Notes: generated by a model from the letters alone, not told the origin. A stretch of DNA of 64,000 nucleotides from Bacteroidota bacterium (GCA_035516035.1 DATJAS010000006.1:8522-72521); one strand, 5' to 3'. Counted from the stretch's first letter, positions 30,738 to 47,735 are shown. Made by a program: numbers and translations.

Positions 30738-30807
30738 GCCGCCTCGCGAGTTCCGGTTCAGGCCGTAAAGATAGTCAAACACACGCGAAACCACAAGGCG
30801 CCGGCTC

Positions 30808-31755
30808 GTGATCACGACGGCGGCCCTTCGAAGGGGGACGCCCCCCAGATCGGACAGCGCGCTGCGCCGGGGCGTGGTCAGGGCGCTCCTGTACTACGAC
30901 ATCTGGCGCTATCCCCTGACATCCCTCGAGCTCCACGCCTTCCATCCCGGAGAGGCTTCATCGCACAGCCGGTTTGTCCTGGCACTGGATGCGATGGTGC
31001 GCGACGGGTCGCTCGCGCGGGAAGGAAACTACTACTGCCTCCCCGGGAGAGAAGAGGGGGCCCGGGAACGGCGCCGGAGAGAGCGGCACGCCCGGGGCAT
31101 GTGGATACTGGCGGGATGCGCCGCCCGTATCATCAAGTCGTTCCCTTTCGTCCGCGGGATCCTGGTCTCGGGCGATCTTTCCAAGAACGCCACCGGCAGG
31201 GGAAGCGACGTCGACTTCTTCATCCTGACGGAACCCGGACGCCTCTGGATCGCGAGGACGCTCCTGGTGATGTTCAAGAAGACCGTGCTGCTGAACAGCA
31301 AGAAGTTCTTCTGCGTCAACGCGTTCTGCGCCACGGACTCGATGGTCGTGGCCGACAGGAACATCTACCAGGCGACGGAGATCGCGCAGCTCAAGCCGCT
31401 CTACAATACGGCGCTCTTCCGGGCGTACCTCGACGCGAACGGGTGGATCCGGGAATACTTCCCGAACTTCAGCCCCGCCGCGCTCCGGCTCCCGAGAGCG
31501 ACGGAGCGGAGGAGCATCCTGCAGAGGCTCGCGGAATTCCCGTTCCGGTTCCTCCCCGCCGGCCGCATCGACGCCGCGCTGATGAGGGGGATGCGGCGCG
31601 AGTGGGCCCGGCGGCACCCCGAACTCGACGAGCGGACGCGCGAGGAGATTTTCCTCTGCGCGCCGGGGGAATCGCGGGCATTCGCCGGGAATTTCCAGGG
31701 AAAGGTCCTCCGCGCGTACGCGACCCGGCTCAGGGCGCACGGGGTCGCGCCGTGA
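30808..31755 (+). CDS. wHTH + nucleotidyltransferase (Pol-beta superfamily)-like protein; first gene of the ten-gene operon
   Basis: Begins at GTG 30808. GDLSKNATGRGSDVDFFI resembles the G[SG]-x(n)-DxD NTase motif. The N-terminal ~70 aa (ALLYYDIWRYPLTSLELHAF...MVRDGSL) looks like a winged helix. Confidence 0.55.
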   Translation: MITTAALRRGTPPRSDSALRRGVVRALLYYDIWRYPLTSLELHAFHPGEASSHSRFVLALDAMVRDGSLAREGNYYCLPGREEGARERRRRERHARGMWILAGCAARIIKSFPFVRGILVSGDLSKNATGRGSDVDFFILTEPGRLWIARTLLVMFKKTVLLNSKKFFCVNAFCATDSMVVADRNIYQATEIAQLKPLYNTALFRAYLDANGWIREYFPNFSPAALRLPRATERRSILQRLAEFPFRFLPAGRIDAALMRGMRREWARRHPELDERTREEIFLCAPGESRAFAGNFQGKVLRAYATRLRAHGVAP

Positions 31756-33224
31756 ACGGGGCCGACATCCTCTTCACACACTCCTATTTTCTCCGGTTCG
31801 ACCCGAAGGAACTCCGGGCGATGACGCCCTACCCGCCGCTGGGAACGCTCTACGCGGCCTCCATCGCGCGGGGGCTCGGCTACCGCCCGTCGCTCTTCGA
31901 CAGCATGCTCGCCGAAGGCGAGGCCGAAATCACGCCCGTGATACGCCGGCTCCGCCCGCGCATCGTCGCCATCTACGACGACGATTTCAATTACCTGACG
32001 AAAATGTGTCTCACGCGGATGCGCGAAGCGGCGTTCGCCCTTGCGGGCATCGCGCGCGGGGAAGGGTGCACGGTGATCGTGCACGGCTCCGACGCCGCCG
32101 ATCGCGCGGAGGAATACATCGCGCGCGGCGCCGATTACGTCCTGTGCGGCGAGGGAGAGGGACCCCTGGGCGACCTCCTCGTCGCGCTCAGGGACGGAGG
32201 GGACCCCTTCGCCGTGAGGGGCGTCGTCGCGCGCGACGGCCTCACGCTGCGGCGGACGCTCCCCCACGCCTCCGTGAGGGATCTTGACGCCCTCCCGATG
32301 CCCGCGTGGGACCTGATCGACGCCTCGCGGTACCGGGACGCCTGGGTGAACCGTCACGGCCATTTCTCGCTCAACATGGTCACGACGCGCGGCTGCCCTT
32401 TTCACTGCAACTGGTGCGCCAAGCCGATCTACGGGCAGGCGTACGCCTCCCGCTCGCCGGCCAACGTCGTCGATGAGATGATCCACCTGCGCCACACGCT
32501 CCACCCCGATCATCTCTGGTTCTGCGACGATATTTTCGGCCTGAAGCCGGGATGGCTCGGGGAGTTCGCCGCGGAGGTGAACCGCCGGGGCGCGCACACC
32601 CCGTTCAAGTGCCTGGCGAGAGTCGACCTCCTCCTCAAGGACAACGCCGTCGATCACCTTGCCGCCGCCGGCTGCACATCGGTCTGGGTCGGGGCGGAGT
32701 CCGGATCCCAGAAGATCCTCGACGCGATGGAAAAGGGGACGACGGTCGGACAGATCCACGAGGCCTCGCGTCTCCTCAGGGCAAAGGGCATCCGCACAGG
32801 ATTCTTCCTCCAGTTCGGTTACCCGGGTGAAACGCGCGCGGACATCGATCGCACGCTCGCCATGGTGAGGGACTGTCTTCCTGACGACATCGGCATTTCC
32901 GTCTCTTACCCGCTCCCGGGAACCCCCTTCTACGAGAGCGTTCGCCGTTCGCTCGGGGGGAAAAAGAACTGGCGCGTGAGCGAAGACCTCGACCTGATGT
33001 TCCCGGGAGAATTCCATCCGGATTTCTACAGGGCGCTTCATGCCCTGACGCACAAACGCCTCAGGGTCTGGCAGGGGGTGAAGGAGGCGAGAGCACTGGC
33101 GGCGGCGCCATGGACCGCCTCGGGCGCAAAGCTCCGCCGCGTGGCCGGCGGGGCGTACCATGTCCTGACGCTCCCGTACTACCGCAGGAAGATGCATGCG
33201 CTCGAAAAACCCCTCCAGGCCTGA
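31752..33224 (+). CDS. Cobalamin (B12)-binding-domain radical SAM enzyme 1 (class B)
   Basis: N-terminal B12-domain-like region (PYPPLGTLYAASIARGLGY ... IVAIYDDD) and a radical SAM triad in TTRGCPFHCNWCAKP (CxxxCxxC). Start at GTG 31752 forms a GTGA overlap. The track's 909-aa ORF from 30495 is an artefactual N-terminal extension. Confidence 0.85.
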   Translation: MNGADILFTHSYFLRFDPKELRAMTPYPPLGTLYAASIARGLGYRPSLFDSMLAEGEAEITPVIRRLRPRIVAIYDDDFNYLTKMCLTRMREAAFALAGIARGEGCTVIVHGSDAADRAEEYIARGADYVLCGEGEGPLGDLLVALRDGGDPFAVRGVVARDGLTLRRTLPHASVRDLDALPMPAWDLIDASRYRDAWVNRHGHFSLNMVTTRGCPFHCNWCAKPIYGQAYASRSPANVVDEMIHLRHTLHPDHLWFCDDIFGLKPGWLGEFAAEVNRRGAHTPFKCLARVDLLLKDNAVDHLAAAGCTSVWVGAESGSQKILDAMEKGTTVGQIHEASRLLRAKGIRTGFFLQFGYPGETRADIDRTLAMVRDCLPDDIGISVSYPLPGTPFYESVRRSLGGKKNWRVSEDLDLMFPGEFHPDFYRALHALTHKRLRVWQGVKEARALAAAPWTASGAKLRRVAGGAYHVLTLPYYRRKMHALEKPLQA

Positions 33225-34269
33225 CCGCTTCTCCCACCGTGCCTGGCGCGGTGCGGCCCCTCCCCGGAGCGTCCTCCTCATCAGGCTTCACGCGCTCGGG
33301 GACGTGGCAATCGTGCTCCCGCTGGCCGGCTCCATTGCCAGGGAGTGGCCCGGCGCACGCATCGACATGCTGACCGCTCCCCCCGCAGATTCAATCGCCA
33401 GGCTCGCCAGGGCAATCAGCAACGTCTACGTCTACGAGGTTGCCCCGTCCAGGCTCGCGCGCATCGTCGACGCGTTCACGTACGGGCTTGCGGTCAGGAG
33501 GATGCGCTATGATGCTATTATCGACATTCAATCAAACTACATAACCCGTATCATCCGCTGGAGTTCAGGCGTTCGCTCATGGAGTGAATTCGATCGGTTC
33601 TCGCCTCTCTCCGCAGCCGAGCGCGCCCGGCGCTCTCTCGCTGCATGCGGAGTTCCCCGCCCCGCGTTTGATATCCCGGCTAAGATACGGGAGGAATCGC
33701 TCAAGGAAGCCCGGATGAGGCTCCGTGCCGCCGGCTGGGACGGGAGCACGAGGCTCGCGGTCTTCAATCCCGCGGGCCTCTGGGTCACGAGGAACTGGCC
33801 CCTGGAGAACTACGTTGAACTCTACAGACTCTGGAGCAAGCGGGAACCCCTCCGCGTGCTCATGCTCGGGACCGACCGCATACGGGAGTCCTCCCGGGCG
33901 ATCGCACAGGCATGCGGGAACGACATCATAAACCTCGCGGCGCAAACCTCGGCCGGCGAAGCATTTGCACTTCTGCGCCTTGCTGACGTCATTATCACCG
34001 AAGATTCCGGCCTGATGCACATGGCGTGGAGCGCGGGAACCCCCGTCGTGGCTCTCTTCGGATCCACGAACAGTGCATGGTCCTCCCCGCCCGGAGACCG
34101 GGCCGTCTGCCTCGATTCCAGCGACCTCCCCTGTGGCTGCTGCATGGAGCCCCGGTGCGCATTCGGCGACGTCCGTTGTCTTGCCCGCCGGGCGCCCGGG
34201 GAGGTGCTCGGCGCAGCCCTCGGGCTCATTGAGCGCGTCCACGCCCACACACAAACTGCACCCGGTTGA
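33196..34269 (+). CDS. Glycosyltransferase family 9 (heptosyltransferase-like)
   Basis: LLIRLHALGDVAIVLPL, NPAGLWVTRNWP and ITEDSGLMHMAWSAGTPVVALFGSTN match the WaaC/WaaF-type pattern. Confidence 0.8.
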   Translation: MRSKNPSRPDRFSHRAWRGAAPPRSVLLIRLHALGDVAIVLPLAGSIAREWPGARIDMLTAPPADSIARLARAISNVYVYEVAPSRLARIVDAFTYGLAVRRMRYDAIIDIQSNYITRIIRWSSGVRSWSEFDRFSPLSAAERARRSLAACGVPRPAFDIPAKIREESLKEARMRLRAAGWDGSTRLAVFNPAGLWVTRNWPLENYVELYRLWSKREPLRVLMLGTDRIRESSRAIAQACGNDIINLAAQTSAGEAFALLRLADVIITEDSGLMHMAWSAGTPVVALFGSTNSAWSSPPGDRAVCLDSSDLPCGCCMEPRCAFGDVRCLARRAPGEVLGAALGLIERVHAHTQTAPG

Positions 34270-35540
34270 TGTTCCGTATCACGATATTCGTCGTCGTTGC
34301 CGGCCTCCAGTACCTCTGCTACCGCCATGCGCGCACATGGGCTGCACGGCGCTTTCCGGGGAGCCGTCGGGCGGCCACGCTGGTCAACGCCTTCTTCTCG
34401 CTCTTCGCCGTCACGCTCTTCGTCGCCGTGTTCCTCGGCATGGCGGGGGGTGCGCTCCCGGGATGGCTCACCGCACTCCTTGCACGCCCGTTCTACATCT
34501 GGCTCGGGGGAACGATCGGTCTCGGCCTCGCGCTCATTGTCTGGATGATTGTCACGGCCCCGCTGCGCCTGGGCAGGGCGATCGCCCTGCGCATCCCGCG
34601 CCTCGGCAGGGCCTACCGCGCGATCACGGCCCACCGGGGCGCGCGCCGGTTTGACGCAGCGCGCAGGGCCTTCCTCTTCCACGCCGCGGAGGGGGTGGCC
34701 GTGGCGTCGTTCGGCGGCGCGACATACGGGGTATTCCGGGGGCGGTACGGCTACCAGTACACGGACTCAACGATGGAGCTGGCCACACTCCCCCGGGAGC
34801 TGGACGGATTCACGATCGGCCTCCTCTCCGACATCCACTCCAGCTCGTTCATGACCAGGAGGGACATGGACGGCTACTGCCGCGGCGTGATGTCGCTCGG
34901 TGCCGACCTCATCGTCGTCCCGGGCGACTTCGTCAACAGCCAGACAAGCGAAGTGTATCCCTTTGCCGAATCGTTCAGCGCTTTGCATGCGCCCTGCGGC
35001 GTGTTCGGCGTCATGGGAAATCACGATTTCTACGCGGGGGACCCCGAGCGCGTCGCCCGCGAGGTCGACGGGTGCGGCGTCCGGCTCCTGAGAAACGACA
35101 GCGTGTTCATCGAGCGCGGCGGGGCCCGGTTTGCGCTCGCCGGCATCGACGACGTGGGGCGGCGGGAAACGGCCGCCGCATACATGCGCCGCGCGCTCAG
35201 GTCCATTCCCGACGGCACCCCGAGGATCCTCCTCTCGCACAGGCCGTATTTCATCGGCGAGGCGGGCCTGGAGGGGGTCGACCTTGTGCTGAGCGGGCAC
35301 ACGCACGGGGGACAGATCGTCCTCGGGCAGATCGGCGGCATCACGCTGACACCGGCCGCCCTGGCTTCTCCGTACATCTGGGGAAAATACAGGCTGGGGC
35401 GGACACAGATGTACGTCTCCAGGGGGATCGGGACGGTGGGGCTCCCCATGAGAATCAACTGTCCCCCCGAGATTACCAAGATCACGCTCAGGGCCGCCTC
35501 ACCGCCCCCCGGGGGGAGCGCCGATGCCCACGGCGCGTGA
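34269..35540 (+). CDS. Polytopic membrane metallophosphoesterase (calcineurin-like, YkuE/YaeI type)
   Basis: About 4 N-terminal TM helices, then the DIH, GDFV, GNHDFY and GHTHGGQ motifs. ATG 34269 overlaps the GT9 stop (TGATG). Confidence 0.8.
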   Translation: MFRITIFVVVAGLQYLCYRHARTWAARRFPGSRRAATLVNAFFSLFAVTLFVAVFLGMAGGALPGWLTALLARPFYIWLGGTIGLGLALIVWMIVTAPLRLGRAIALRIPRLGRAYRAITAHRGARRFDAARRAFLFHAAEGVAVASFGGATYGVFRGRYGYQYTDSTMELATLPRELDGFTIGLLSDIHSSSFMTRRDMDGYCRGVMSLGADLIVVPGDFVNSQTSEVYPFAESFSALHAPCGVFGVMGNHDFYAGDPERVAREVDGCGVRLLRNDSVFIERGGARFALAGIDDVGRRETAAAYMRRALRSIPDGTPRILLSHRPYFIGEAGLEGVDLVLSGHTHGGQIVLGQIGGITLTPAALASPYIWGKYRLGRTQMYVSRGIGTVGLPMRINCPPEITKITLRAASPPPGGSADAHGA

Positions 35541-37254
35541 GACGGCATCCCCGGGAGCGGACCGACCCCCCTTCCTCCCGAACGTGCGGTTCCTCTGGAG
35601 ATTTGCCAGGGAGCGGAGGACACGGCTCGCACTCGCGCTAGCGGCGCTCACACTGGTGTCCGCGACATCGCTCCTCTATCCGTGGCTCCTGAAGGTGATG
35701 ATCGACCGCCTCGGCCGCGGCGCTCCCCCGGAAGCGGGCATCGGGGGGATGGCAACTCTCCTCATCGCGGTGCTCGCGCTCTCGGGGGCCGCGGGCTACT
35801 ACGAGCAGGTGGAGCTGAAGAAACTCGGGTACCTCCTCCGCAACGCGGTGCGCGAGTCGCTCCACGCATCCCTTCTCGCCCGGGAAATGGCGTTTCACCG
35901 GGCTTCGCGACTGGGGGAGCTTTCTGCGCGCGCCTCCGCCGACGTCGGCACGCTTGCGGACATCTACACGGGACTCCTCGCCCCCGCGATCCAGAACGCC
36001 CTCTTCATCGCAGGATGCCTTGCCCTCATGCTCCTGCTGAACTGGCTCGCCACGATACTCGTCCTCCTCCTGGTCCTCGCGCCGCTGCCGGTCATCGCAC
36101 GCCTGGGACGGAAGATCCGCGCAGCGACCGCGCACGGGCGCGCGGGCGCGGCGCGCGCACATGCGCTGTTCGAAGAATCGCTCTCCGCGATCCGCGAGAT
36201 CAAGGCGTTCTCGCGCGAGCGCCTCGAGGCTTCACGGTATGCCGGCGCCCTCCGGGACGCCCTCCGGGGCGAAATGGAGGGAGCCGTGCTCCAGATCGGC
36301 ATCAACCAGGTCGTCTACATGCTCGCCTCCGGCGCGCTCCTGGCGATATTCTTCCTGGGGACGCGTCGCACGTTTCTCCCGGCGTGGTCGCTTGGCGACG
36401 TGGTGGCGTTTTACTTTTACTCGTACACGATGATGATGGCGGTCCTTTCCGCGGGGAAAGTCGTTCTCTCGGCGCACGAAACCGCGGGGGCGCTCGAACG
36501 GGTCATTGAGCTCGCTGCGCCTGCAGCGGCCCCCCCCCACGCTGACTCCGTGCGAGAGACGCCCCGCGGCACGGCGATCGAAATGGAAGGCGTCCGGTTC
36601 TCGTATGACGGCGAGAGGCAAATCCTGGACGGCGTGTCGCTCGCCATCCCCCCGGGCACGTGGCAGGTCATCACCGGTCCCTCGGGGAGCGGCAAATCGA
36701 CGCTCGCCGCGCTCCTCATCGGGCTCTACCGGCCCGATGCGGGGAGCGTGCGCGTTGGAGGACTCGCTCCCGATGCGGGGCTCTCCCGCGCCCGGGACGT
36801 CGGGTACGCGGGACAGGAGCCACTCCTCCTGCACGGCACGCTGCGGGAGAACATCGCGTTCGCCGACGCCCCCGCGACAGGAGCGATGATCGCGGGGGTC
36901 GTCGAGGCGTGCTGCCTCGCGCCCCTCGTACGGTCGCTCCCCCTGGGACTCGACACGCCGGTGGGCGAGCGGGGGTACACGCTCAGCGGCGGCGAGAAAT
37001 CCCGCGTGGCGATCGCGCGCGCGCTCCTGCACGACCCTCCCCTCCTGATCCTGGACGAGGTGAACACGATGCTGGACGCCGGGACGGAACGGGCGCTCTG
37101 GAGGAATCTGACCGCGCTTCGCCGGGGGCTGACCACGATCGTCATCACGCACCACGCCGGGGGAGTCCCGGGCGGGGAGGGGGCCCTCGAACTCCGCGGG
37201 GGAGTCGTTCTCCAGCAGGCCGCCGGCGCGCTCGTCGGCGCGGGAGCGCGATGA
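35524..37254 (+). CDS. ABC exporter, fused permease/ATPase (MsbA-like)
   Basis: Six-TM N-terminal half, Walker A GPSGSGKST, signature LSGGEKSRVAIARAL, and Walker B LLILDE. Confidence 0.85.
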   Translation: MPTARETASPGADRPPFLPNVRFLWRFARERRTRLALALAALTLVSATSLLYPWLLKVMIDRLGRGAPPEAGIGGMATLLIAVLALSGAAGYYEQVELKKLGYLLRNAVRESLHASLLAREMAFHRASRLGELSARASADVGTLADIYTGLLAPAIQNALFIAGCLALMLLLNWLATILVLLLVLAPLPVIARLGRKIRAATAHGRAGAARAHALFEESLSAIREIKAFSRERLEASRYAGALRDALRGEMEGAVLQIGINQVVYMLASGALLAIFFLGTRRTFLPAWSLGDVVAFYFYSYTMMMAVLSAGKVVLSAHETAGALERVIELAAPAAAPPHADSVRETPRGTAIEMEGVRFSYDGERQILDGVSLAIPPGTWQVITGPSGSGKSTLAALLIGLYRPDAGSVRVGGLAPDAGLSRARDVGYAGQEPLLLHGTLRENIAFADAPATGAMIAGVVEACCLAPLVRSLPLGLDTPVGERGYTLSGGEKSRVAIARALLHDPPLLILDEVNTMLDAGTERALWRNLTALRRGLTTIVITHHAGGVPGGEGALELRGGVVLQQAAGALVGAGAR

Positions 37255-38429
37255 CGCGCGTCGCCATGTTCATACACGGCGGGATCGTCCCCCCCGCATC
37301 GACGGAGAGCGTCCCGGCTCTCTGTGCGCTCGTGGACGCCCTCTCCGTGTCGTGCGACGTGACCGTGTATACGACCGTCGGGCCCGACGGCCGGGACGCG
37401 CCGTTCCATGCCGGGAAGGCGCTCGTGAAATTCGTCCGCGCGCGGCAGGACGACAGTCCCCTCCGCAGAGCGCTGGCCACATCGCGCGCATTCCTGGCAG
37501 ACCGGCGGCGGGAACCGTACGATCTCGTGCACGGATTCTGGGGGCTCCCCGGGGGACTCGCAGCCGTCGTCGCCGCGCGCATGGCGGGACTCCCCGCGGT
37601 CGTCACGCTCCTGGGGGGCGAGGCGGCCGCGCTTCGCTCGATCGGCTACGGGAACATGCGCACCGCACCGGGACGCGCGCTGACGCTCCGCGTCTGCCGG
37701 GATGCCGACGCGCTGACGCTGCTGACCCGGGCGCAGCTTGCGGGACTCCGGCGCTTCGGGTTCGAGCGGGAGGAAGGAGTGTACGTGATCCCGTTCGGGG
37801 CGGATGCCGCGCTCTTCCCCCCCGTCAACGCGTTCCCGCCGGCTCCCCCCTTTCAATTCCTCCACGTCGGGCACATCAACCGGGTGAAAGACCAGGCGAC
37901 GCTGCTCCGGGCGTTTCGCTCCGTGCGCGCCGAAATCGACTGCAGGCTCCGGATCGTCGGTGAGGACACGCTCGGCGGATCGCTCCAGGCGCTGGCACGC
38001 GAACTGGGCGTGGCGCACGACGTGACATTCACGGGGTACGCGGACCACGGGTCGCTCGGCGCGCATTTTGCCCGGGCTCACCTCCTCATCCACACGTCGC
38101 TCTACGAAGGAGAGGGGGTCGTCTTCGCGGAAGCCGCCTCATCGGGCCTTCCGATCTGCGGTACGGAGGTCGGTCTCTGTGCGGACCTCGGTCCCGCGTT
38201 TGCCACGACCGTCCCCCCGGGGGAGCCGGCACGGCTCGCGGGCGCGATTCTCGGACTCCTGCGCGACCCCGGGGCGATGGAGCGACAGCGCGCGCACGCG
38301 CTCGCCTGGGCGCACGCGCACACGCCAGCCTGGACGGCCGGCCAGTTCACACGCATCTACGGGGAGCTTGCAGGGGGGACGCACTCCCCGCGCGCACTTC
38401 CCGAAGCCGCCTGGAGTCCGCCCGCATGA
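37251..38429 (+). CDS. Glycosyltransferase family 4 (GT-B, retaining type)
   Basis: FLHVGHINRVKD and the EX7E region HTSLYEGEGVVFAEAASSGLP. Start at ATG 37251 (ATGA overlap). The track's ORF from 36660 is an upstream artefact. Confidence 0.8.
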   Translation: MTRVAMFIHGGIVPPASTESVPALCALVDALSVSCDVTVYTTVGPDGRDAPFHAGKALVKFVRARQDDSPLRRALATSRAFLADRRREPYDLVHGFWGLPGGLAAVVAARMAGLPAVVTLLGGEAAALRSIGYGNMRTAPGRALTLRVCRDADALTLLTRAQLAGLRRFGFEREEGVYVIPFGADAALFPPVNAFPPAPPFQFLHVGHINRVKDQATLLRAFRSVRAEIDCRLRIVGEDTLGGSLQALARELGVAHDVTFTGYADHGSLGAHFARAHLLIHTSLYEGEGVVFAEAASSGLPICGTEVGLCADLGPAFATTVPPGEPARLAGAILGLLRDPGAMERQRAHALAWAHAHTPAWTAGQFTRIYGELAGGTHSPRALPEAAWSPPA

Positions 38430-39895
38430 TCGCACTGGTAAATCCCCGTTCCACGCGGTGGAGGTACAGGATCCCCCTTTCCGTCCTGTCGCTCGGGGCC
38501 TCGCTCGAGGGGCGATTCCCGTACGAGATCCTCGACGGCAACCTCCACCCGGATGCCGGCGAAGCGCTCCTCGGCCTCATCAGGGACCGGGGAGTCCGCT
38601 ACCTTGGACTCACGGTGATGCCGGGACCGCAACTTGAAGAATCGATCCGGCTCTCGCGCCTCGTGCGCGAGCGGGAGCCCGCCGTCACGATTATCTGGGG
38701 AGGATACTTCCCCACGCTCCATCCCGACGTCGTGCTCGGCGCGCCGTACGTGGATTGTGTGATCCGCGACCAGGGGGACCACGCGCTCCCGGCGCTCATC
38801 GAGCGCCTCGAGCGGGGAGAGTCTCCGGGCGGGATCCCCGGCGTGTCGTTCAAAGAGAACGGGATACGGCACAACGAAAAGCAGAAGCTGATCGACCCCA
38901 ACACGCTCCCCCCTCTTCCCTACGACCGCGTGGACATTCCCCGCTATATCGGGCGGACGTGCCTGGGAACGCGGACGGTCAACTACCACTCCAGCGTCGG
39001 GTGCCCGTTTCTGTGCGGCTTCTGCGCGGTCGCGGCCTCGTACGGCGCGCGGTGGATCGGTCTGGCACCGGAGCGGATCGCGGCGGATCTCCGGTGGTTC
39101 AGGGAGCGCCACGGCGTCAACGCGGTCGAATTCCACGACAACAATTTCTTCACATCCGAGCGGCGGACGCTCGAATTCGCCGAGAGAATCGCCCCCGAAG
39201 GGCTCGCCTGGTGGGGGGAAGCGCGCCCCGACACGCTGCTCGCGTACGACGACCGGACCTGGCGCGCGATGCAGCGCTCCGGCTGCGCCATGATTTTCAT
39301 GGGCGCGGAGTCGGGCTCGAGCGAGGTGCTGAGGCTGATGGACAAGGGGGGGACACAGACACCGGAGACGGTGCTCGCGCTCGCCGAGCGGATGCGGGAA
39401 TACGGCATCGTCCCGGAATTCTCGTTCGTGATGGGAAGCCCGACGGCGACTGTCGACGAGGACATCGAACGGGACATCCGGTTTATCCGCAGGATCAAGA
39501 TGATCAACCCCGCGGCGGAGATCGTCATGTACGTTTACTCCCCGGTGAATTTCTCTGACGCGGAACTCTTCGCCGCCGCCCGGAAAGACGACTTCGCCTA
39601 CCCCCGCACGCTGGACGACTGGATGCGCCCGGAGTGGCGGATGCACGATCTGCGCAAGCGCCCCGTCACCCCCTGGCTGCGCAGGCGGCACATCGCGCGG
39701 ATCAGGAACTTCGAGCGGGTGCTGAACGCCCGTTATCCGACGCGGTCCGATCTGAGGCTGACTGCGGCACGGAAGGGGATGCTCGGTGCCCTGGGCCGCT
39801 GGCGGTACGACCTGGGGATCTACGCGGCCCCCCTTGAAATCGCGCTGGCCCAGCGGCTCATCCGGTACCGCCAGCCCGAGACGGAGGGATTCTGA
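38426..39895 (+). CDS. Cobalamin (B12)-binding-domain radical SAM enzyme 2 (class B)
   Basis: N-terminal B12-like domain (PLSVLSLGASL ... YLGLTVMPGPQ) and a radical SAM triad in SSVGCPFLCGFCAV. ATGA overlap at 38426-38429. Confidence 0.85.
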   Translation: MIALVNPRSTRWRYRIPLSVLSLGASLEGRFPYEILDGNLHPDAGEALLGLIRDRGVRYLGLTVMPGPQLEESIRLSRLVREREPAVTIIWGGYFPTLHPDVVLGAPYVDCVIRDQGDHALPALIERLERGESPGGIPGVSFKENGIRHNEKQKLIDPNTLPPLPYDRVDIPRYIGRTCLGTRTVNYHSSVGCPFLCGFCAVAASYGARWIGLAPERIAADLRWFRERHGVNAVEFHDNNFFTSERRTLEFAERIAPEGLAWWGEARPDTLLAYDDRTWRAMQRSGCAMIFMGAESGSSEVLRLMDKGGTQTPETVLALAERMREYGIVPEFSFVMGSPTATVDEDIERDIRFIRRIKMINPAAEIVMYVYSPVNFSDAELFAAARKDDFAYPRTLDDWMRPEWRMHDLRKRPVTPWLRRRHIARIRNFERVLNARYPTRSDLRLTAARKGMLGALGRWRYDLGIYAAPLEIALAQRLIRYRQPETEGF

Positions 39896-40746
39896 TGACG
39901 GGCCAGGGAGCATACCCCGACGAGGGCGCCGCCGCGGGGCACGCTGAGCTCGCGGGAGATTTCCACGACGCGATGGCCGCATCGTACGACCGGACGTTCG
40001 GGCGCCCGGGGCCGGGCGCGCGGATCCGCGCGCGCGTCCAGGAGGCGCTCTTCGCCGCCTTCCGTCCCGGGGAGCGCGTGCTCGAACTGAACTGCGGCAC
40101 GGGCACGGACGCCGTTGCACTTGCACTGCGCGGCATTCGCGTGACCGCCACGGATATCTCCCCCGCCATGGTCGCCGAGGCGCGTGCAAAGGCGCGCCGC
40201 AGCGGGGTGGAGGATCTCGTCAGCACTGCCGTCATGGACGCGGCAGACCCCGGCGCCCCCGACGGGCGGCTCTTTGACGGTGCGTTTTCAAATTTCGACG
40301 GGCTCAACGAGCTCGGGAACATCGCCGCGTTCGCCGGCCGCATCGGCGGTCACCTCGCCCCCGGCGCCCCCCTCCTGTGCATGGTGCTCAACCCCGTCTG
40401 CCTCTGGGAGGTCGCCTATTTCGCTGCAACGCTACGCCCCCGGCGCGCGCTCAGGAGGATTCTGGCCAGGGGTGAAGAGCTGGCTCCCCTGCACGCCGCT
40501 GCCCCCCTGAAGCTCTACTCCCCCGGCCGATTTGCGTCGTATTTCAGGCGCGATTTCACCGTTGCGGCAGTACGGCGCTTCGGCCTCCTCCTCCCTCCTG
40601 CCGGTTTCGGCAGGCTCTACGCCACGCGCGCATCACTCATGAGGAGGCTTGAGCCCTGGGACGAGGGGATCGCCCGCCTGTTCCCGCTCCGCTACCTGTG
40701 CGACCACTACCTGATCACGCTGCGCAGGCGGGGAGCCCTCAGGTGA
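39895..40746 (+). CDS. Class I SAM-dependent methyltransferase
   Basis: Motif I VLELNCGTGTDAVALA followed by an acidic loop (TATDISPAM). TGATG overlap at 39893-39897. Confidence 0.8.
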   Translation: MTGQGAYPDEGAAAGHAELAGDFHDAMAASYDRTFGRPGPGARIRARVQEALFAAFRPGERVLELNCGTGTDAVALALRGIRVTATDISPAMVAEARAKARRSGVEDLVSTAVMDAADPGAPDGRLFDGAFSNFDGLNELGNIAAFAGRIGGHLAPGAPLLCMVLNPVCLWEVAYFAATLRPRRALRRILARGEELAPLHAAAPLKLYSPGRFASYFRRDFTVAAVRRFGLLLPPAGFGRLYATRASLMRRLEPWDEGIARLFPLRYLCDHYLITLRRRGALR

Positions 40747-41477
40747 GCACGGGGGCCACAGCGGGCGCTCCGGGAGCGGTGAGGGGGAGACTCTGCGCGG
40801 GGCTGCTACGGCGCGCAAGCCACCGCCTGGCGCTCCGGCTTTACGTCCGCCGCGCGATGTCGCGTGAGGACCGCTTCAGGATGCTCGGCTTCGCACTCAG
40901 CGTACAACCGACGGTATTCCACCCCCGGCTCTTCGGCACGAGCAGGTTTTTCGGGAGATATCTCCGCACGCGTGATCTCCACCATGCGGAGATCCTCGAG
41001 ATCGGCTGCGGCTCTGGCATCCTGTCCTTCGTCGCCGCCCGGAGAGGGGCGCGCGTGACGGCACTGGACATCAATCCCCGGGCCGTCCGCTGCACCGAGG
41101 CGAACGCCCGCTCGAACGGGCTTGAGGCGCGCGTCAACGTGCTCGAGAGCGACCTGTTCGACTCGCTCTCAGCCGGCCGCGCGTTCGACCACATCGTGTG
41201 GAATCCCCCGTTCTACGGTGCCGAACAGACAGACGACGCAAGCCGTGCCTGGAACGCGGGACCCGCATACGGAGTGATCAACCGGTTCGCACGCTCCGCG
41301 TGCCGCTTCCTCCGCCCCGGGGGATCGGTCATCCTCGTGACCTCCTCGGACGCGGGCGAACGTGAGATTCTCTCGGCCATGGCGCGCGAGGGATTTGCAG
41401 CGTTGCTCCGCGCGCGCCGGAGGGGGCTCTTCGAAACGCTCAGCATATTCGAATTCAGGGGAGCGGCACGGGAATGA
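40743..41477 (+). CDS. HemK/MTS-type methyltransferase with NPPF amino-methyltransferase motif
   Basis: ILEIGCGSGILS (motif I) and IVWNPPFY (motif IV of N-directed methyltransferases). Likely start is GTG 40743 (GTGA overlap); the alternative is ATG 40857. Confidence 0.75.
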   Translation: MSTGATAGAPGAVRGRLCAGLLRRASHRLALRLYVRRAMSREDRFRMLGFALSVQPTVFHPRLFGTSRFFGRYLRTRDLHHAEILEIGCGSGILSFVAARRGARVTALDINPRAVRCTEANARSNGLEARVNVLESDLFDSLSAGRAFDHIVWNPPFYGAEQTDDASRAWNAGPAYGVINRFARSACRFLRPGGSVILVTSSDAGEREILSAMAREGFAALLRARRRGLFETLSIFEFRGAARE

Positions 41478-42505
41478 GCGTCGGGGCCTTCCTCAACACG
41501 CTCGGCACGCGCTGCCACGCGCTTCCCGTCGTCATACTCTACGTGACCGAAGGGTGCAACCTGAAATGCATTTCCTGTTCGTACCGCGCCGCCCCTGAAG
41601 GGGAACTGACGCTGGGTGAGATCGCCGCGCTCGGCCGTTCTCTCCGCGAGGCGGGCCTCCGGCATATCGTCTATTCGGGGGGAGAACCCCTCACGCGGCG
41701 CGATTTCCCCGACATCTGCGCGCTCTTCGCGGCGCCGGCGGAGCGGAGCACGCTCCTCACGAACGGCCTCCTCCTGGAGAAGCGGTTCGCGGAAATCTCC
41801 CCGTTCCTGGACGAATTCATCGTATCGCTCGACGGCGCCGACGCAGCAACGCACGACGCGATCAGGGGGATCGCCTCGTACGATCTGATCGTGCGGGGGC
41901 TCCGCCGCGTTGCTGATGCGGGAAGGGGAAAAGACGTCGCCATCCGCACGGTCGTGCAGAAGCGGAATTTCCGATCGCTCCCCGCGATGGTCTCCGCCGC
42001 ACGGGAGATCGGTGCGGGGAGGATCTCGTTCCTGGCCGCCGACGTCCGATCATCGGGGTTCGGACGGCTTGAACGGGGGGAGGCCGCCCCCGCCGGGCAG
42101 TTGACGCTCGACCCGGAGGAATCTGCCGAGCTCCGCCGCATCGTCGAGCGCATGGCGGTCGAGTTTGCAGCGGAGTTCGAGACCCGGTTCATCGACCAGT
42201 CCCCTTCACGGATGCTCGACATCGCTTCCTACTACGAAGCGCTGAACGGGTCCCGCCCGTTCCCTCCCACTTCCTGCAATGCCCCGATGGTCTCCACGGT
42301 CATCACATCCCGCGGAGACGTTCTCCCCTGCTACTTCCTCCCCCCTCTCGGCAACGTGCGCAGGGAGACGCTCGGCGCACTCCTTGGCGGGGAGGCCGCC
42401 AGGAGGACCAGGCGCGACGTCCGCTCGCGCAGGCAGCCGGAGTGCGCGACGTGCGTCTGCACGCTCCGGGTCGGACCCGCACAGGCGCTCGCCGGTCGGT
42501 TCTGA
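41474..42505 (+). CDS. Radical SAM enzyme with SPASM/twitch-like C-terminal Cys domain
   Basis: YVTEGCNLKCISCSY (CxxxCxxC). The C-terminus has C-x12-G-x4-C (CNAPMVSTVITSRGDVLPC) and CATCVC. ATGA overlap at 41474-41477. Confidence 0.8.
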   Translation: MSVGAFLNTLGTRCHALPVVILYVTEGCNLKCISCSYRAAPEGELTLGEIAALGRSLREAGLRHIVYSGGEPLTRRDFPDICALFAAPAERSTLLTNGLLLEKRFAEISPFLDEFIVSLDGADAATHDAIRGIASYDLIVRGLRRVADAGRGKDVAIRTVVQKRNFRSLPAMVSAAREIGAGRISFLAADVRSSGFGRLERGEAAPAGQLTLDPEESAELRRIVERMAVEFAAEFETRFIDQSPSRMLDIASYYEALNGSRPFPPTSCNAPMVSTVITSRGDVLPCYFLPPLGNVRRETLGALLGGEAARRTRRDVRSRRQPECATCVCTLRVGPAQALAGRF

Positions 42506-42509
42506 CTCC

Positions 42510-42526
42510 GCGGGTCGGTTTCCCGC
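42510..42526 (+). terminator. Weak hairpin after the operon's last gene
   Basis: GCGGG-tcggttt-CCCGC lies 5 nt after the stop at 42505. It has only 5 bp and no clear T tract. Confidence 0.25.
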
Positions 42527-42586: not shown

Positions 42587-43162
42587 ATGACAGCCCCCAC
42601 CGCACACGATTCCCCCCTGAACACCGGCTGGATCGAAGTCATCGCCGGCTGCATGTTCAGCGGGAAAACCGAAGAACTGATCCGCCGCATCCGCAGGGCA
42701 CAGATCGCCCGCCAGCGGGTCGCGATATTCAAGCCGCGCATCGACAACCGCTACAGCACGGACCACATCGTCTCGCACAGCGAGGCGCGCATTGAATCCG
42801 TGAGCGTCGAGAGCTCAGCGGAGATCCTCCGGCTCTCGGCCGACGCATTCGTCATCGGGATCGACGAGGGGCAGTTTTTCGACATGGGACTCGTCGACGT
42901 CGCGGAAGAGCTCGCCAACCGGGGACGCCGCGTGATCATCGCCGGGCTGGACCAGGACTTCAGGGGCAAGCCCTTCGAGCCGATCCCGCAGCTCCTCGCC
43001 GTCGCCGAGTACATCACCAAGACGCTCGCCATCTGCGTCGTCTGCGGGAACCCCGCCGACAGGACGCAGAGGACCACCCCTTCGAGCGAGCGCGTCCTCG
43101 TCGGCGCGACCGACTCCTACGAGGCGCGGTGCAGGCGCTGCTTCCAGCCGCCGAAACAGTAG
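42587..43162 (+). CDS. tdk: Thymidine kinase
   Basis: P-loop [20 protein letters not shown], and a C-terminal zinc ribbon (CVVCG ... ARCRRC). Confidence 0.9.
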
Positions 43163-43170
43163 GCTCGTTC

Positions 43171-44019
43171 ATGGGCGGGACGCCGGGCATAGAGTCGCTC
43201 CTGGGCCGGATACCGTACGAAGAGGCCGCGGCGTACGTGCGGGGGCGGATCCCCTCGCCTCCCGGGATCGCGCTCGTCCTCGGCTCCGGCCTCGGCGACT
43301 ATTCCCCCCTCGAGGGGGGGCTCACGTTTCGCGCGGGGGAAATCCCCTCATATCCCCGTTCGACGGTGAGCGGCCACCGGGGGGAGGCCGTCTTCGCGCG
43401 TATCGCCGGGAGCGACGTCCTCGCGTTCCGCGGCAGAATCCATCTCTACGAGTGCAACGACGCCGCCACGGTCCTCTTCCCCGTCGCGCTCGCGCGGGCG
43501 CTCGGCGCCCGGGTGATGATCGTGACGAACGCCGCGGGGGGCATCAACAGGCAGTTCGTCCCGGGGGACCTCATGCTGATCACCGATCAGATCGACATGA
43601 CGCTCCACGGGGAGTGGATCCCGGCGGAGCGCACTGGGCCCCGGCGCACGTATGACGCGGCGCTCTGCGCGCTGGCCATGGAGGCAGCCCTCCGGCTGGG
43701 GGTGCCGCTCAGGCGGGGGGTCTACGCCTCCGTCAAGGGGCCATCATACGAGACGGCCGCGGAGGTGGAAATGCTCCGCCGCCTCGGGGGGGACGCCGTC
43801 GGGATGTCGACGGTAAAGGAGGCGTCGCTCGCCGCCTCGCTCGGCATGCGCGTCATGGGCATCTCCTGCATCACGAATAAGGCGGCGGGAACGGGGGGAG
43901 GAAAACTCGACCACAGCGAGGTGACCGTGGTCGCCTCCACCGTGAAGGCGCGCTTCGCGGATCTCCTCACCGAGTGCATTGCGGGCCTCGGCGCTCAGGC
44001 GCGGGGGAACAACCTGTAG
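43171..44019 (+). CDS. Purine nucleoside phosphorylase (PNP/MTAP family, PunA-like)
   Basis: LGSGLG, GHRGE..F, TNAAGG, GPSYETAAE..MLR.LGGDAVGMST. Start moved to ATG 43171. Confidence 0.85.
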   Translation: MGGTPGIESLLGRIPYEEAAAYVRGRIPSPPGIALVLGSGLGDYSPLEGGLTFRAGEIPSYPRSTVSGHRGEAVFARIAGSDVLAFRGRIHLYECNDAATVLFPVALARALGARVMIVTNAAGGINRQFVPGDLMLITDQIDMTLHGEWIPAERTGPRRTYDAALCALAMEAALRLGVPLRRGVYASVKGPSYETAAEVEMLRRLGGDAVGMSTVKEASLAASLGMRVMGISCITNKAAGTGGGKLDHSEVTVVASTVKARFADLLTECIAGLGAQARGNNL

Positions 44020-44462
44020 AGCATCAGGTAGACGAGCACGCCCGTCACGGAGACGTAGAGCCAGACGGGAAGCGTCCACCGGGCGATCTTCCTGTGCAGC
44101 GCGAATTTCCGCTTCAACCCCCGGGCGAGCGTGATGATCGCCAGGGGGGGAACCGACGCAGCCAGCACCGTGTGCGTGGCGAGTATCACGAAGTAGACCG
44201 CGCGCACGGGCCCCCCACCGCCGAACCTCACGGTACCGACCAACGCATGATAGAGAACATAGGATGAGAGGAAGAGCGTCGAGCAGGCGACCGCGGCGAT
44301 CATGCACGTCCTGTGCGCCCTGACGCGCCTCTGCCTGATGAAGTAATAGCCCGCCAGGAGGCAGAGCGCGCTTGAGGCGTTCAGTATGGCGTTCAGGAGC
44401 GGGAGATCGCCGATCGACACGGCCCCCTCACGAGCCGAGGAACCGGTCGACGGCCATTGCAA
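43995..44462 (-). CDS. DUF420 membrane protein (often linked to haem-copper oxidase clusters)
   Basis: LPLLNAILNASSALCLLAGYYFIR.R....H with four TM helices. It overlaps the ctaB stop, and its 3' end overlaps the convergent PNP gene by 25 nt. Confidence 0.7.
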   Translation of the reverse strand: MQWPSTGSSAREGAVSIGDLPLLNAILNASSALCLLAGYYFIRQRRVRAHRTCMIAAVACSTLFLSSYVLYHALVGTVRFGGGGPVRAVYFVILATHTVLAASVPPLAIITLARGLKRKFALHRKIARWTLPVWLYVSVTGVLVYLMLYRLFPRA

Positions 44463-45333
44463 TCATCAACAGGGGAAGGTAGACGAGCGAGGCGATGAAG
44501 AGGCGCCGGGCCGCCGGACCGGTCCTCTGCACGAGAAGCATCGCCGCGCATCCTGCGAAGACTCCCCCGAGAACGAGAGCAGACAGGGCGTAGACCGGGC
44601 CCGCTTCCCCGAGCGCCGCAAGGAGGAGCGAGACGGGAACGAGCGCGACGGCGTATGACAGCGACTGGACTCCCGTCTTCTTCCCGTCGGCGTCCGTCAC
44701 GGCGAGGAGACGGTATCCCCCTTTCGCATAGTCGTTCCTGTAGATCCAGGCAAGCGAGAGGAAGTGGGGCATCTGCCAGAGGAAGAGTATCCCGAACAGG
44801 ACAAAGGCCCCCGCACCCGGGACCCCTGCGGCCGCCGTCCAGCCCATCACGGGGGGGATGGCTCCCGGAAACGCGCCGATGAGCGTCGCCATGGGCGTCA
44901 GGCGCTTGAGCGGCGTGTAGAGGAGGAGATACGTCGCGCACGTCACTGCGGCCAGCGAAGCCGTCACCGCGTTGAGCCTGGTCGCCAGGAGGAGGAGTCC
45001 CCCCGCCACGAGCAGAATCCCGAATATGACCGCCTCGGCAAGTCCGATCCGTCCCGAGGGGAGCGGCCGCTGCTCCGTGCGCTTCATGAGCGCGTCGAAC
45101 TTCCGCTCCATCGCCTGGTTCAGCGCCCCCGAGCCTCCTCCCACCATCGCGGTCCCGAGCGCGAGCGCGAGAGCCCCCGCAGCATGGGGAGTCCCCGCGG
45201 AGCCGAGCATGTATCCCGCGAGCGACGTCAGCACCGAGAGGAACGTCAGCTCCGGTTTCGTGAGCGCGAGGTAATCGGCCACCCGCGTGCGCTCCAGTGC
45301 GAGCGCCCCGGGGGGCGTGAGGTGCGTGCTCAT
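44428..45333 (-). CDS. ctaB: Protohaem IX farnesyltransferase (haem O synthase)
   Basis: YLALTKPELTFLSVLTSLAGY, NQAMERKFDALMKRTEQRPLPSGR, and WQMPHFLSLAW. Start at ATG 45333 (ATGA overlap). The track's 551-aa form is an artefactual extension. Confidence 0.9.
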   Translation of the reverse strand: MSTHLTPPGALALERTRVADYLALTKPELTFLSVLTSLAGYMLGSAGTPHAAGALALALGTAMVGGGSGALNQAMERKFDALMKRTEQRPLPSGRIGLAEAVIFGILLVAGGLLLLATRLNAVTASLAAVTCATYLLLYTPLKRLTPMATLIGAFPGAIPPVMGWTAAAGVPGAGAFVLFGILFLWQMPHFLSLAWIYRNDYAKGGYRLLAVTDADGKKTGVQSLSYAVALVPVSLLLAALGEAGPVYALSALVLGGVFAGCAAMLLVQRTGPAARRLFIASLVYLPLLMIAMAVDRFLGS

Positions 45334-47734: not shown

Positions 47735-47735
47735 G

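Follow-up and report, generated by a model that had tools for sequence, protein, structure and literature searches.

Which product is assembled by an operon in which three radical S-adenosylmethionine (SAM) enzymes and two methyltransferases are interleaved with glycosyltransferases, a phosphoesterase and an exporter? This question is raised by ten consecutive genes (g1 to g10) in a 64,000-nucleotide stretch of DNA (GCA_035516035.1 DATJAS010000006.1:8522-72521; hereafter the window, with positions counted from its first letter) from a bacterium of the Ignavibacteriota/Bacteroidota group. A preliminary description had grouped the ten genes as one unit outside any characterised cluster and had suggested an exported glycolipid or oligosaccharide of the outer envelope as its product. 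Here, we followed the ten genes through related genomes. We found that they are one state of a modular system, the invariant core of which consists of g1, a nucleotidyltransferase-like protein, and the radical SAM enzyme g2. With moderate confidence, we propose that the operon would assemble and tailor a lipid-anchored surface oligosaccharide, lipooligosaccharide (LOS)-, O-antigen- or glycolipid-like, and move it across the membrane.

Reading the open reading frames (ORFs) of the window yielded ten consecutive plus-strand genes at 30808-42505 (Table 1). Each junction string, read directly, matched the preliminary description exactly: there is no intergenic space and all nine junctions overlap. 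The same boundaries were called independently on a publicly available metagenome contig that carries identical g5 to g10. The GC content of the block (0.66-0.71) does not differ from that of its flanks. Pfam bore out the gene-by-gene domain calls for g2 to g10 and, when run on all ten proteins, recovered the expected families, with the B12-binding domain of g2 remaining below its gathering score; for g1, the call is carried by a Pol-beta-type motif and an AlphaFold model. Judged from this layout, the block is a genuine, tightly packed ten-gene operon, and the gene overlaps point to a single transcript.

Synteny was assessed across 92 related loci, which we searched with the ten proteins by tblastn and all of whose ORFs we clustered. 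In 70 of the 80 genome loci, the gene after g1 is a g2 orthologue, mostly 46-78% identical, which begins at, or a few hundred bases from, the g1 stop codon. The ten exceptions comprise nine contigs that end less than about 0.7 kb past g1 and one solo copy of g1. The invariant core of the system is g1 with the directly following, translationally coupled g2, a widespread and uncharacterised pair; what had been taken as merely the first two genes of the operon is the pair that organises it. The solo copy (L022 8068-9066) is a second g1, 52% identical, in the metagenome bin that also yielded L016; no radical SAM gene accompanies it, and its neighbours encode a sigma-54 two-component system, a DUF4861 protein and an EamA transporter. 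The g1 family comprises 4,832 clusters at 90% identity (E ≤ 1e-20) and 1,032 representatives at 50% identity (E ≤ 1e-30), and is found in at least 473 species genomes. The best 80 g1 genome loci are labelled Bacteroidota/Ignavibacteriota, except for four metagenome bins with other taxon labels, and all 80 either carry such a label or resemble that group; the labels of the g1 loci derive from metagenome bins. Cultured carriers are Acidiluteibacter ferrifornacis and Crocinitomix catalasitica.

A fixed ten-gene unit was not found. The full set is not conserved, and relatives with a 58-63% identical g1 carry five or eight genes at the same site. The five-gene version (L002) consists of g1, g2, a family 9 glycosyltransferase (GT9), the phosphoesterase and g10. 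The eight-gene version (L087, L089) reads g1, g2, GT9, phosphoesterase, a family 4 glycosyltransferase (GT4), g7, g9 and g10, and lacks the ABC exporter g5 as well as g8. The GT4/g7/g9 block separates the five- from the eight-gene version, g5 and g8 are added in the window, and g10 is present in all three. All three versions lie between PASTA-rpe-AsnC-glnA and tdk-PNP-cox, and we regard the ten-gene operon as one of several states that a modular system can take. Ignavibacteria-type genomes always have the cluster placed between PASTA-rpe-AsnC-glnA and a salvage block (cdd/tdk/nupC/PNP), and relatives down to about 37% g1 identity hold the same chromosomal site.

The modules around the core vary with lineage. 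GT9 and phosphoesterase are confined to Ignavibacteria-type loci, and the Bacteroidia versions lack both. Optional modules are a g8-type methyltransferase with a second g2 paralogue (g8 recurs in 43 loci, mostly preceding that paralogue), the pair of g7 and g9, and the SPASM enzyme. A g7-type gene (B12b) is present in 13 of the 15 full-flank loci that contain the g9-type methyltransferase (MT9), usually adjacent to it, and orthologues of the GT4 g6 (38-55% identity) occur in many related loci. Orthologues of the ABC exporter occur in four lineages and lie inside the cluster in L007, L014 and L029 (42-46% identity to g5), while Bacteroidia clusters hold a polytopic membrane protein family (c26) in its place. 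An assignment of c26 as Wzx/MurJ flippase was not confirmed by Pfam, NCBIfam or a profile search against the Protein Data Bank (PDB), and it remains a 'polytopic membrane protein'. Judged by synteny, the radical SAM genes belong to the cluster itself and are not mere neighbours of it. Flavobacteriales-type clusters additionally contain, beside the SPASM and g7 genes, a predicted lipoprotein family of about 380 amino acids with an invariant GKPxKCxWCHE motif (CxxCH, heme-c-type); it has no Pfam or NCBIfam match and is absent from the window.

What kind of chemistry does the core accompany? Glycan-assembly genes of unrelated families (GT9, GT4, GT2, GT26, GT87 and PMT_2-type GT-C) recur by the core, usually on the same strand, and 23 of 32 full-flank loci contain at least one of them. 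In the Crocinitomicaceae loci L053 and L079, two Wzy_C genes, a GT4, a WecG/TagA gene and a polyprenyl-phosphate phosphoglycosyltransferase, which passes its NCBIfam cutoff (314 versus 296), stand beside g1-g2. In L093, a PMT_2-type GT-C gene overlaps g1. Beyond such neighbourhoods, g1 occurs in fusion proteins, each a single ORF on its contig: Bac_transf+g1 (P0350), GT4+g1 (P0303) and methyltransferase+g1 (P0336). The first lies in a locus of two GT4 genes, Wzy_C, the fusion and an epimerase (L090). The second lies with a phosphoglycosyltransferase, a DUF1972-GT4, two Wzy_C genes, RgpF and a carbamoyltransferase (L091), and is followed by a g2 orthologue and another B12-type radical SAM gene. 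The third stands behind Wzz and Wzy_C and precedes g2, a g8 homologue and a g2 paralogue (L092). The g2 orthologues after P0303 and P0336 are 47-49% identical. The GT4 and methyltransferase domains fused to g1 were considered as g6 and g8 orthologues and rejected, as only the superfamily is shared. The recurring glycan genes and the g1 fusions to phosphoglycosyltransferase and GT4 support the earlier idea of an envelope glycolipid or oligosaccharide. Two observations concern single loci. An IS21-type transposase pair (rve and IstB) lies directly 3' of the polysaccharide cluster in L091 (19346-21636), a hint that the module may, in some of its versions, be located in DNA that is mobile or was rearranged recently. 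In L092 (6579-7325), a gene of the NAGPA family (phosphodiester glycosidase) immediately precedes Wzz/Wzy_C and the fusion of methyltransferase and g1; like g4, it would fit a phosphodiester-linked glycan substituent, as a single observation.

The founding protein g1 has no significant Pfam match and no NCBIfam match, and sequence and profile searches of the PDB returned no meaningful relative. It carries a Pol-beta-type motif (SGDLSK...SDVDF). Across 36 aligned homologues, S121-G122 and D134-x-D136 do not vary, in agreement with the hG[GS]...DxD pattern, and the N-terminal segment is strongly conserved; the fused relatives carry SGSLSK...GDIDYF. The AlphaFold (AF2) model (predicted local distance difference test score of 90.5) shows a canonical winged helix-turn-helix (wHTH) ahead of a nucleotidyltransferase-like core, with a helical domain at the C-terminus. 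Foldseek searches of the PDB with this model gave weak matches to MNT/MntA (probability 1.0, E 6e-3, query-relative TM score 0.25) and further to aminoglycoside nucleotidyltransferases (AadA, ANT(4')) and GlnE, whereas the wHTH resembles an O-methyltransferase dimerisation domain. PF01909 (NTP_transf_2) is matched weakly by 32 of the 36 family members (best E 2.6e-5), with the g1 of the window at 13.1 bits against a gathering score of 21. The original label of a 'wHTH/NTase-like' protein was thus right, as judged by the SG...DxD motif and the model. With neither a Pfam or NCBIfam model nor a PDB relative, and with weak fold matches only, the g1 family is structurally and functionally uncharacterised.

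Its partner g2 reached 60.5 bits for Radical_SAM and 20.8 bits for B12-binding, the latter under the Pfam gathering score of 32.1; in all six orthologues with precomputed Pfam annotation, the B12 domain is likewise weak, faint or absent. The protein carries a CPFHCNWC motif. In the PDB it comes closest to AprD4 (64 bits), followed by MgmA, which C-methylates a protein glutamine (61 bits, PDB 9CCB); OxsB reaches 20.6 bits. AprD4 is the non-methylating sugar 1,2-diol dehydratase of apramycin biosynthesis and works without cobalamin. Since the B12 domain of g2 is degenerate, we leave both methylation and an AprD4-like dehydration or rearrangement open. The second such enzyme, g7, fits the class B (cobalamin-dependent) radical SAM architecture (B12-binding PF02310 at 51.5 bits with a gathering score of 32.1, Radical_SAM PF04055 at 57.4 bits, CPFLCGFC motif), and cobalamin binding is predicted; AprD4 (53 bits) followed by TokK are its PDB relatives. 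With a non-methylating enzyme as the best solved relative of both g2 and g7, the C-methylation or cross-linking of the product envisaged at first is no more than a candidate chemistry. For g10, PF04055 scored 69.7 bits and SPASM PF13186 37.9 bits (gathering score 21.5), with the motif CNLKCISC and, at the C-terminus, CX12GX4C and CxxCxC. Among solved structures it comes nearest to BlsE (60 bits), which decarboxylates a sugar nucleoside; PqqE, MoaA and viperins rank behind. The radical SAM CxxxCxxC motifs are kept across the orthologues of all three proteins, and catalytic motifs are intact in all enzymes of the operon. These structural relatives fit carbohydrate chemistry without proving such a function.

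None of the three enzymes could be assigned to a characterised family. No cutoff was reached for any characterised B12-type radical SAM equivalog (BchE, HpnJ, HpnR, PhpK, AprD4, BzaD, MgmA, ladderane radical SAM, ApyD). Scores of g2 against the NCBIfam cutoffs were 111/481 for BchE, 103/360 for the ladderane model ('lipid biosynthesis B12-binding/radical SAM'), 100/600 for PhpK, 95/578 for HpnJ and 79/500 for AprD4; g7 reached 101/750 for ApyD, 95/481 for BchE and 62/500 for AprD4, and g10 stayed below every equivalog cutoff (best PTO1314, 78 versus 306; BlsE model, 58 versus 400). Orthology to known radical SAM enzymes such as BchE or HpnJ, which had been named as a way to overturn the novelty of the block, is therefore not indicated. 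A link to hopanoids or tetrapyrroles was rejected on the same grounds: BchE, HpnJ, AhbD and NirJ, the best NCBIfam names of g2 and g10, lie 4-8x under their cutoffs.

The remaining proteins show a similar pattern of clear folds and missed equivalog models. The GT9 protein g3 remained under the heptosyltransferase cutoffs (II, 94.7/134.6; I, 76.5/185.3; RfaQ, 58/467) and, by these scores, is a GT9 but not a WaaC/WaaF/WaaQ equivalog. In g4, the calcineurin-type metal motifs (DIH, GD, GNHD, GHTH) are intact and the N-terminal segments are hydrophobic; its L004 orthologue matches Pfam 4TM_phosphoesterase, and the NCBIfam cutoffs of YaeI (110.7 versus 188) and LpxG (85.2 versus 350) were missed. 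The exporter g5 scored 122 bits for ABC_membrane and 91 bits for ABC_tran in Pfam, and remained below MsbA_rel (275/780), MsbA_lipidA (239/602) and PglK (103/1000) in NCBIfam. The term 'MsbA-like' given to it hence applies to the fold and the generic ABC exporter architecture and not to the MsbA equivalog, whose cutoff is missed (239 versus 602). As to g9, its MTS domain and an NPP[YF] motif in 29 of 30 orthologues agree with the NPPF-type, N-directed methyltransferase first assigned. It passes TIGR00537 HemK2/MTQ2 (a 'hypothetical equivalog'; 101.4 versus a cutoff of 87), and is the only protein of the window's operon to pass any such model. We did not file it as PrmC/Mtq2 because its fixed position beside a B12-type radical SAM enzyme in the cluster argues against a housekeeping role in release-factor modification.

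From these parts, a possible pathway can be sketched. At the cytoplasmic face, g3 and g6 may extend a membrane-bound acceptor with sugars, and g1 would attach a nucleotidyl group, or a related phosphodiester, to a hydroxyl of one of the sugars. On the activated sugar, g2 could then perform radical C-H chemistry, with C-methylation, deoxygenation and rearrangement as candidates, while g7 and g10 may contribute additional radical steps and g8 and g9 O- or N-methylation. The GT4/g7/g9 module would add and tailor one more sugar. Finally, the membrane phosphoesterase g4 may strip or trim the phosphodiester or pyrophosphate handle, and g5 would flip the finished lipid-linked product to the periplasmic face. 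The nucleotide handle is the least secure step of this mechanism, and is proposed by analogy with Fom1/Fom3/FomD of fosfomycin and OxsA/OxsB of oxetanocin biosynthesis, in which B12-type radical SAM enzymes act on nucleotide-tethered substrates with a phosphohydrolase partner. By our reasoning, g1, g2 and g4 would correspond to the nucleotidyltransferase, the B12-type radical SAM enzyme and the metal-dependent phosphoesterase of these systems. However, the families differ: the Fom1 transferase is MobA-like and not Pol-beta-like, and neither FomD nor OxsA is of the calcineurin type. Moreover, the phosphoesterase is missing from Bacteroidia-type clusters and the window contains no phosphoenolpyruvate mutase. 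More tentatively, we suggest that g1 and g2 might represent an unrecognised surface-glycan chemistry, in which g1 primes a carrier-lipid-linked sugar and g2 functionalises an unactivated sugar carbon.

The proposal of a surface glycan draws on the core pairing, the nested versions, the recurrence of glycan genes, the g1 fusions, the recurring transporter, the relatives of the radical SAM enzymes and the intact motifs. Several points weigh against it. Nine of the 32 full-flank loci contain no recognisable glycan gene, and L030 holds only g1, two g2 paralogues and the g8-type methyltransferase (MT8). The radical SAM enzymes resemble those that tailor sugars only weakly (53-64 bits), and for g2, MgmA nearly equals AprD4. 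The model passed by g9 was built on protein-glutamine methyltransferases. In g1, the third acidic residue of the Pol-beta type is not obvious on the expected strand, where an asparagine (N171) is invariant. Pfam, NCBIfam and PDB profile searches gave no support for c26 as a flippase, ORF calling in the related loci was crude and many of these loci are incomplete at contig ends. Furthermore, the ten window genes include no initiating phosphoglycosyltransferase, Wzx, Wzy, WaaL, GT-C or Wzz, although Wzy-dependent-type genes adjoin the g1-g2 core in L053, L079, L090, L091 and L092. As Wzy-type genes are absent from the operon, the window version would be either of the ABC-exporter type or dependent on genes elsewhere.

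Could the same enzymes act on membrane lipids instead? In that case, the radical SAM enzymes would alter acyl or isoprenoid chains or the head group, the glycosyltransferases would add head-group sugars and the exporter would move the lipid. We consider this unlikely, despite the scores of g2 on the ladderane (103 bits) and HpnJ (95 bits) models, the pairing of GT4 with GT87 known from phosphatidylinositol mannosides and loci such as L030 with radical SAM and methyltransferase genes only. The combination of glycosyltransferase, B12-type radical SAM enzyme and export does parallel hopanoid side-chain tailoring (HpnI, HpnJ, HpnP/HpnR, HpnN) and calditol formation by the archaeal synthase Cds, where the membrane lipid first receives a sugar from a glycosyltransferase and is exported after a B12-type radical SAM enzyme has either remodelled that sugar or methylated the lipid (PMC13459092). 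In a review from 2026 on radical SAM enzymes that modify lipids, the only entries are Tes, Mss, Gms, Grs, Gmm, Cds, HpnH/J/P/R, Jaw5 and the ladderane enzymes, and nothing resembles the system of the window (PMC13459092). The lipid-family models, HpnR (80/650) included, are missed by a wide margin; g1 has no counterpart in hopanoid tailoring, and GT9 and GT4 are found here in contrast to the HpnI type there. The window lacks squalene-hopene cyclase, HpnH and other hpn genes, none of which is among the recurrent families of related loci, and across more than 90 loci no squalene-hopene cyclase, fatty-acid or polyketide synthase or lipid prenyltransferase recurs. Tetraether-synthase-type lipid enzymes were rejected as well, since PDB searches with g2 and g7 did not match tetraether synthase. 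In addition, g1 is fused to a polyprenyl-phosphate phosphoglycosyltransferase and set in Wzz/Wzy clusters, a setting more in keeping with carrier-linked glycans than with bulk lipids. If the product were a glycolipid, the two explanations would overlap.

The resemblance to AprD4 (apramycin) and BlsE (blasticidin S) raises the thought of a diffusible glycoside, similar to an aminoglycoside or nucleoside. The glycosyltransferases would make it, the radical SAM enzymes and methyltransferases would tailor it and the ABC exporter would secrete it, with g1 as self-resistance or activating nucleotidyltransferase. The fold of g1 is like that of aminoglycoside nucleotidyltransferases (AadA, ANT(4')), and gene content varies between strains, as in biosynthetic clusters. 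The radical SAM enzymes of such pathways (AprD4, the C-methylases GenK/GenD1, BlsE) are the nearest solved relatives of g2, g7 and g10, act on assembled glycosides or sugar nucleosides and are accompanied by class I N- or O-methyltransferases. Yet identity is low and the models are missed (AprD4, 79 and 62/500; BlsE, 58/400). Scaffold genes for aminocyclitols or nucleosides (2-deoxyinosose synthase, aminotransferases, non-ribosomal peptide or polyketide synthases) are absent, and the exporter occurs in four lineages only. The cluster holds one conserved site of native base composition in Ignavibacteria-type genomes and is vertically conserved in the Fibrobacterota-Chlorobiota-Bacteroidota (FCB) group, unlike an actinomycete-type cluster, and its Wzy_C, Wzz, GT-C and phosphoglycosyltransferase neighbours handle carrier-lipid-linked polymers. 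All this makes a diffusible metabolite improbable. We find it somewhat harder still to credit the modification of a peptide or protein (a proteusin-like ribosomally synthesised and post-translationally modified peptide (RiPP) or a cellular protein) by the B12-type radical SAM enzymes, a HemK-type amide N-methyltransferase and a SPASM maturase, followed by glycosylation and export. The HemK2/MTQ2 match and NPPF motif of g9, the similarity of g2 to MgmA (61 bits), the score of g7 on the RiPP enzyme ApyD (101 bits) and the SPASM domain, typical of peptide maturases, would all suit it; B12-type radical SAM enzymes with an N-methyltransferase recall polytheonamide biosynthesis, and Wzy_C domains also occur in O-oligosaccharyltransferases. 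Against this stands the lack of room for a precursor gene in an operon in which every junction overlaps. No RiPP precursor was found among ORFs of at least 80 amino acids in related clusters, where the conserved extra ORFs are additional methyltransferases and GT4s only; shorter or unlinked precursors lie outside this search. The exporter bears no protease or leader-peptidase domain, Pfam found no PqqD match in any of the ten proteins or in the g1 family members scanned, and the N-terminus of g1 forms three helices followed by a beta hairpin (wHTH) instead of the strand-first PqqD-type topology. The most conventional option, an ordinary lipopolysaccharide (LPS) core or lipid A cluster (GT9, GT4, LpxG-like, MsbA) beside unrelated radical SAM and methyltransferase genes, is also the most improbable and already largely refuted by synteny. 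Heptosyltransferase II, YaeI/LpxG and MsbA-related are indeed the best NCBIfam names of g3, g4 and g5, but all cutoffs are missed (95/135; 111/188 and 85/350; 275/780 and 239/602). The radical SAM and methyltransferase genes interleave, overlap and co-vary with the GT9, GT4, phosphoesterase and exporter genes, and the radical SAM core persists in lineages without GT9, phosphoesterase and ABC exporter.

Returning to a surface glycan as the favoured product, we asked how the system relates to known Gram-negative surface-glycan clusters (waa; Wzy- or ABC-dependent O-antigen/exopolysaccharide; pgl with PglK). Shared features are GT9, GT4 and a half-size ABC exporter in one operon; in related loci they extend to polyprenyl-phosphate phosphoglycosyltransferase, Wzy_C, Wzz, GT26 and GT-C, and to a modular, strain-variable gene content. 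The differences are the three radical SAM enzymes and the obligate Pol-beta-type nucleotidyltransferase of the window, along with the failure of g3, g4 and g5 to reach the WaaC/F/Q, LpxG/YaeI, MsbA and PglK equivalog cutoffs. We know of no radical SAM or Pol-beta-type nucleotidyltransferase components in characterised LPS, O-antigen or pgl clusters, and a search of the open-access literature found no such combination in them. A further likeness is to the TIGR04295 'B12_rSAM_oligo' cassette, in which a B12-binding radical SAM enzyme occurs in a conserved cassette with methyltransferases; it is itself uncharacterised, and its short name suggests an oligosaccharide context. Since they scored 68 and 22 bits against a cutoff of 400, g2 and g7 are not members, and g9 matches the TIGR04290 methyltransferase weakly (34 bits). 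No description of the system was found in open-access full-text literature, and no curated family or solved structure describes it in NCBIfam, Pfam and PDB searches. With equivalog hits under cutoff (g9 aside), the initial impression that the block fits no characterised cluster is borne out. New within surface-glycan clusters would be the nucleotidyltransferase family and the multiple class-B-type radical SAM enzymes, and to our knowledge radical SAM tailoring of surface polysaccharides has not been described.

Table 1 Coordinates of the operon genes, their junctions, the adjoining features and the lipoprotein family of related clusters.
Feature	Position	Strand	Remarks
g1, wHTH and Pol-beta-superfamily nucleotidyltransferase-like protein, 315 aa	30808..31755	+	Founding marker of the system
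g2 ('B12a'), class-B-like radical SAM enzyme	31752..33224	+	N-terminal B12-type domain degenerate
g3, family 9 glycosyltransferase	33196..34269	+	PF01075 91.2 bits, gathering score 22
g4, membrane-anchored metallophosphoesterase, YaeI/LpxG-like	34269..35540	+	Metallophos 50.8 bits
g5, half-size ABC exporter (transmembrane and nucleotide-binding domain)	35524..37254	+	Candidate flippase/exporter
g6, GT4 glycosyltransferase	37251..38429	+	Glyco_trans_1_4 83.7 bits, Glycos_transf_1 79 bits
g7 ('B12b'), B12-binding radical SAM enzyme	38426..39895	+	Usually paired with g9
g8 ('MT8'), class I SAM methyltransferase	39895..40746	+	Methyltransf_25 49 bits
g9 ('MT9'), MTS/HemK-type methyltransferase, NPPF motif	40743..41477	+	MTS 76 bits
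g10, radical SAM enzyme carrying an auxiliary cluster domain of SPASM/twitch type at the C-terminus	41474..42505	+	
g1/g2 junction	31752-31755	+	GTGA
g2/g3 junction	33196-33224	+	29-nt overlap, called likewise in relative L088
g3/g4 junction	34267-34271	+	TGATG
g4/g5 junction	35524-35540	+	17-nt overlap
g5/g6 junction	37251-37254	+	ATGA
g6/g7 junction	38426-38429	+	ATGA
g7/g8 junction	39893-39897	+	TGATG
g8/g9 junction	40743-40746	+	GTGA
g9/g10 junction	41474-41477	+	ATGA
Divergent PASTA/g1 spacer, 70 bp	30738..30807		PASTA start most plausibly ATG 30737, minus strand
GC-rich hairpin	42510..42526	+	Directly 3' of g10 stop; possible transcript end
tdk	42587-43162		Begins 81 bp past g10 stop
Lipoprotein family member, L046	4281-5465		
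Lipoprotein family member, L060	194-1330		
Lipoprotein family member, L071	6591-7754		
Lipoprotein family member, L075	10003-11154		
Lipoprotein family member, L076	5492-6619		
Lipoprotein family member, L079	14624-15766		
Lipoprotein family, C-terminal fragment, L068	20438-20764		

The boundaries of the operon, a divergent PASTA gene with its 70-bp spacer on one side and tdk on the other, had been placed correctly from the outset. The PASTA start given in Table 1 yields 261 amino acids, the same length as in orthologues. A block of the spacer at 30755-30795 (GGAAA[GT]ATA[GC]TCAA[AT]C...GAA..ACAAG) is common to the window, L002, L087, L088 and L089, and is not kept in more distant loci. Read on the minus strand, it gives TTTGA.TAT.TTTCC, reminiscent of Bacteroidota-type promoter elements; no sigma-70-type promoter was detected in the spacer, by a scan whose models do not extend to promoters of the Bacteroidota type. 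The PASTA gene was considered as a member of the system and is treated as a neighbour, because its adjacency is confined to genomes of the Ignavibacteria type (11 of 32 full loci), with no case in Bacteroidia. The hairpin behind g10 is a weak pattern match, and such sites are no commoner in the region than in shuffled sequence. Control by a cobalamin or SAM riboswitch was rejected, as Rfam searches of the whole window returned only a transfer-messenger RNA (tmRNA). This tmRNA (3980-4357, plus strand, 168 bits, tag peptide ANNNYALAA) is the sole structured RNA in the 64 kb, which contain no tRNA genes.

On the same strand as the cluster, a nucleoside-salvage block (42587-44019) follows, with tdk and a PNP_UDP_1 phosphorylase in the window. 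It also lies 3' of the cluster in L030, L035, L041, L042, L045 and L050, and relatives add cdd and nupC. The block is absent in Bacteroidia, tdk is set off from g10 by 81 bp with the hairpin, and the cluster content varies beside it; we therefore read the salvage genes as backbone synteny and consider a functional link to a nucleotidylating pathway less likely. Further downstream, a heme-copper oxidase region (about 44000-50000, minus strand; also L001 8665-14565) comprises DUF420, a CtaB-type UbiA prenyltransferase, COX15/CtaA, COX2, COX4_pro, COX3 and COX1. Since this region is complete, the organism is likely able to respire aerobically despite its oxygen-sensitive radical SAM enzymes. A link of the operon to the heme A/O synthase genes was dismissed, because the cta/cox genes are on the opposite strand, beyond tdk and PNP. 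An anti-phage defence system was likewise dismissed for lack of a specific match: PADLOC returned generic ABC, methyltransferase and viperin-core matches, and none for g1, g2, g3 and g6.

What would such a system mean for its carriers? The modular system spans at least 473 species genomes, belonging to a major bacterial group found in the environment and in association with hosts. Enzymology would gain, as targets, a new nucleotidyltransferase family of uncharacterised structure along with several new subfamilies of class-B radical SAM enzymes. The nested five-, eight- and ten-gene natural variants could serve to assign each step, and the two cultured carriers make the system experimentally approachable. 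If the tentative chemistry suggested for g1 and g2 is true, pairs of B12-type radical SAM enzymes and methyltransferases would add alkyl or other substituents, leading to C-alkylated or radically remodelled O-antigen or LOS sugars; thousands of Bacteroidota/Ignavibacteriota would be concerned, and a part of their surface-glycan synthesis would be cobalamin-dependent. If the product is a surface glycan, the system would imply novel sugar structures (C-methyl, deoxy or carbocyclic sugars) on the envelopes of Bacteroidota/Ignavibacteriota, and cobalamin availability would be linked to the composition of their cell surface.

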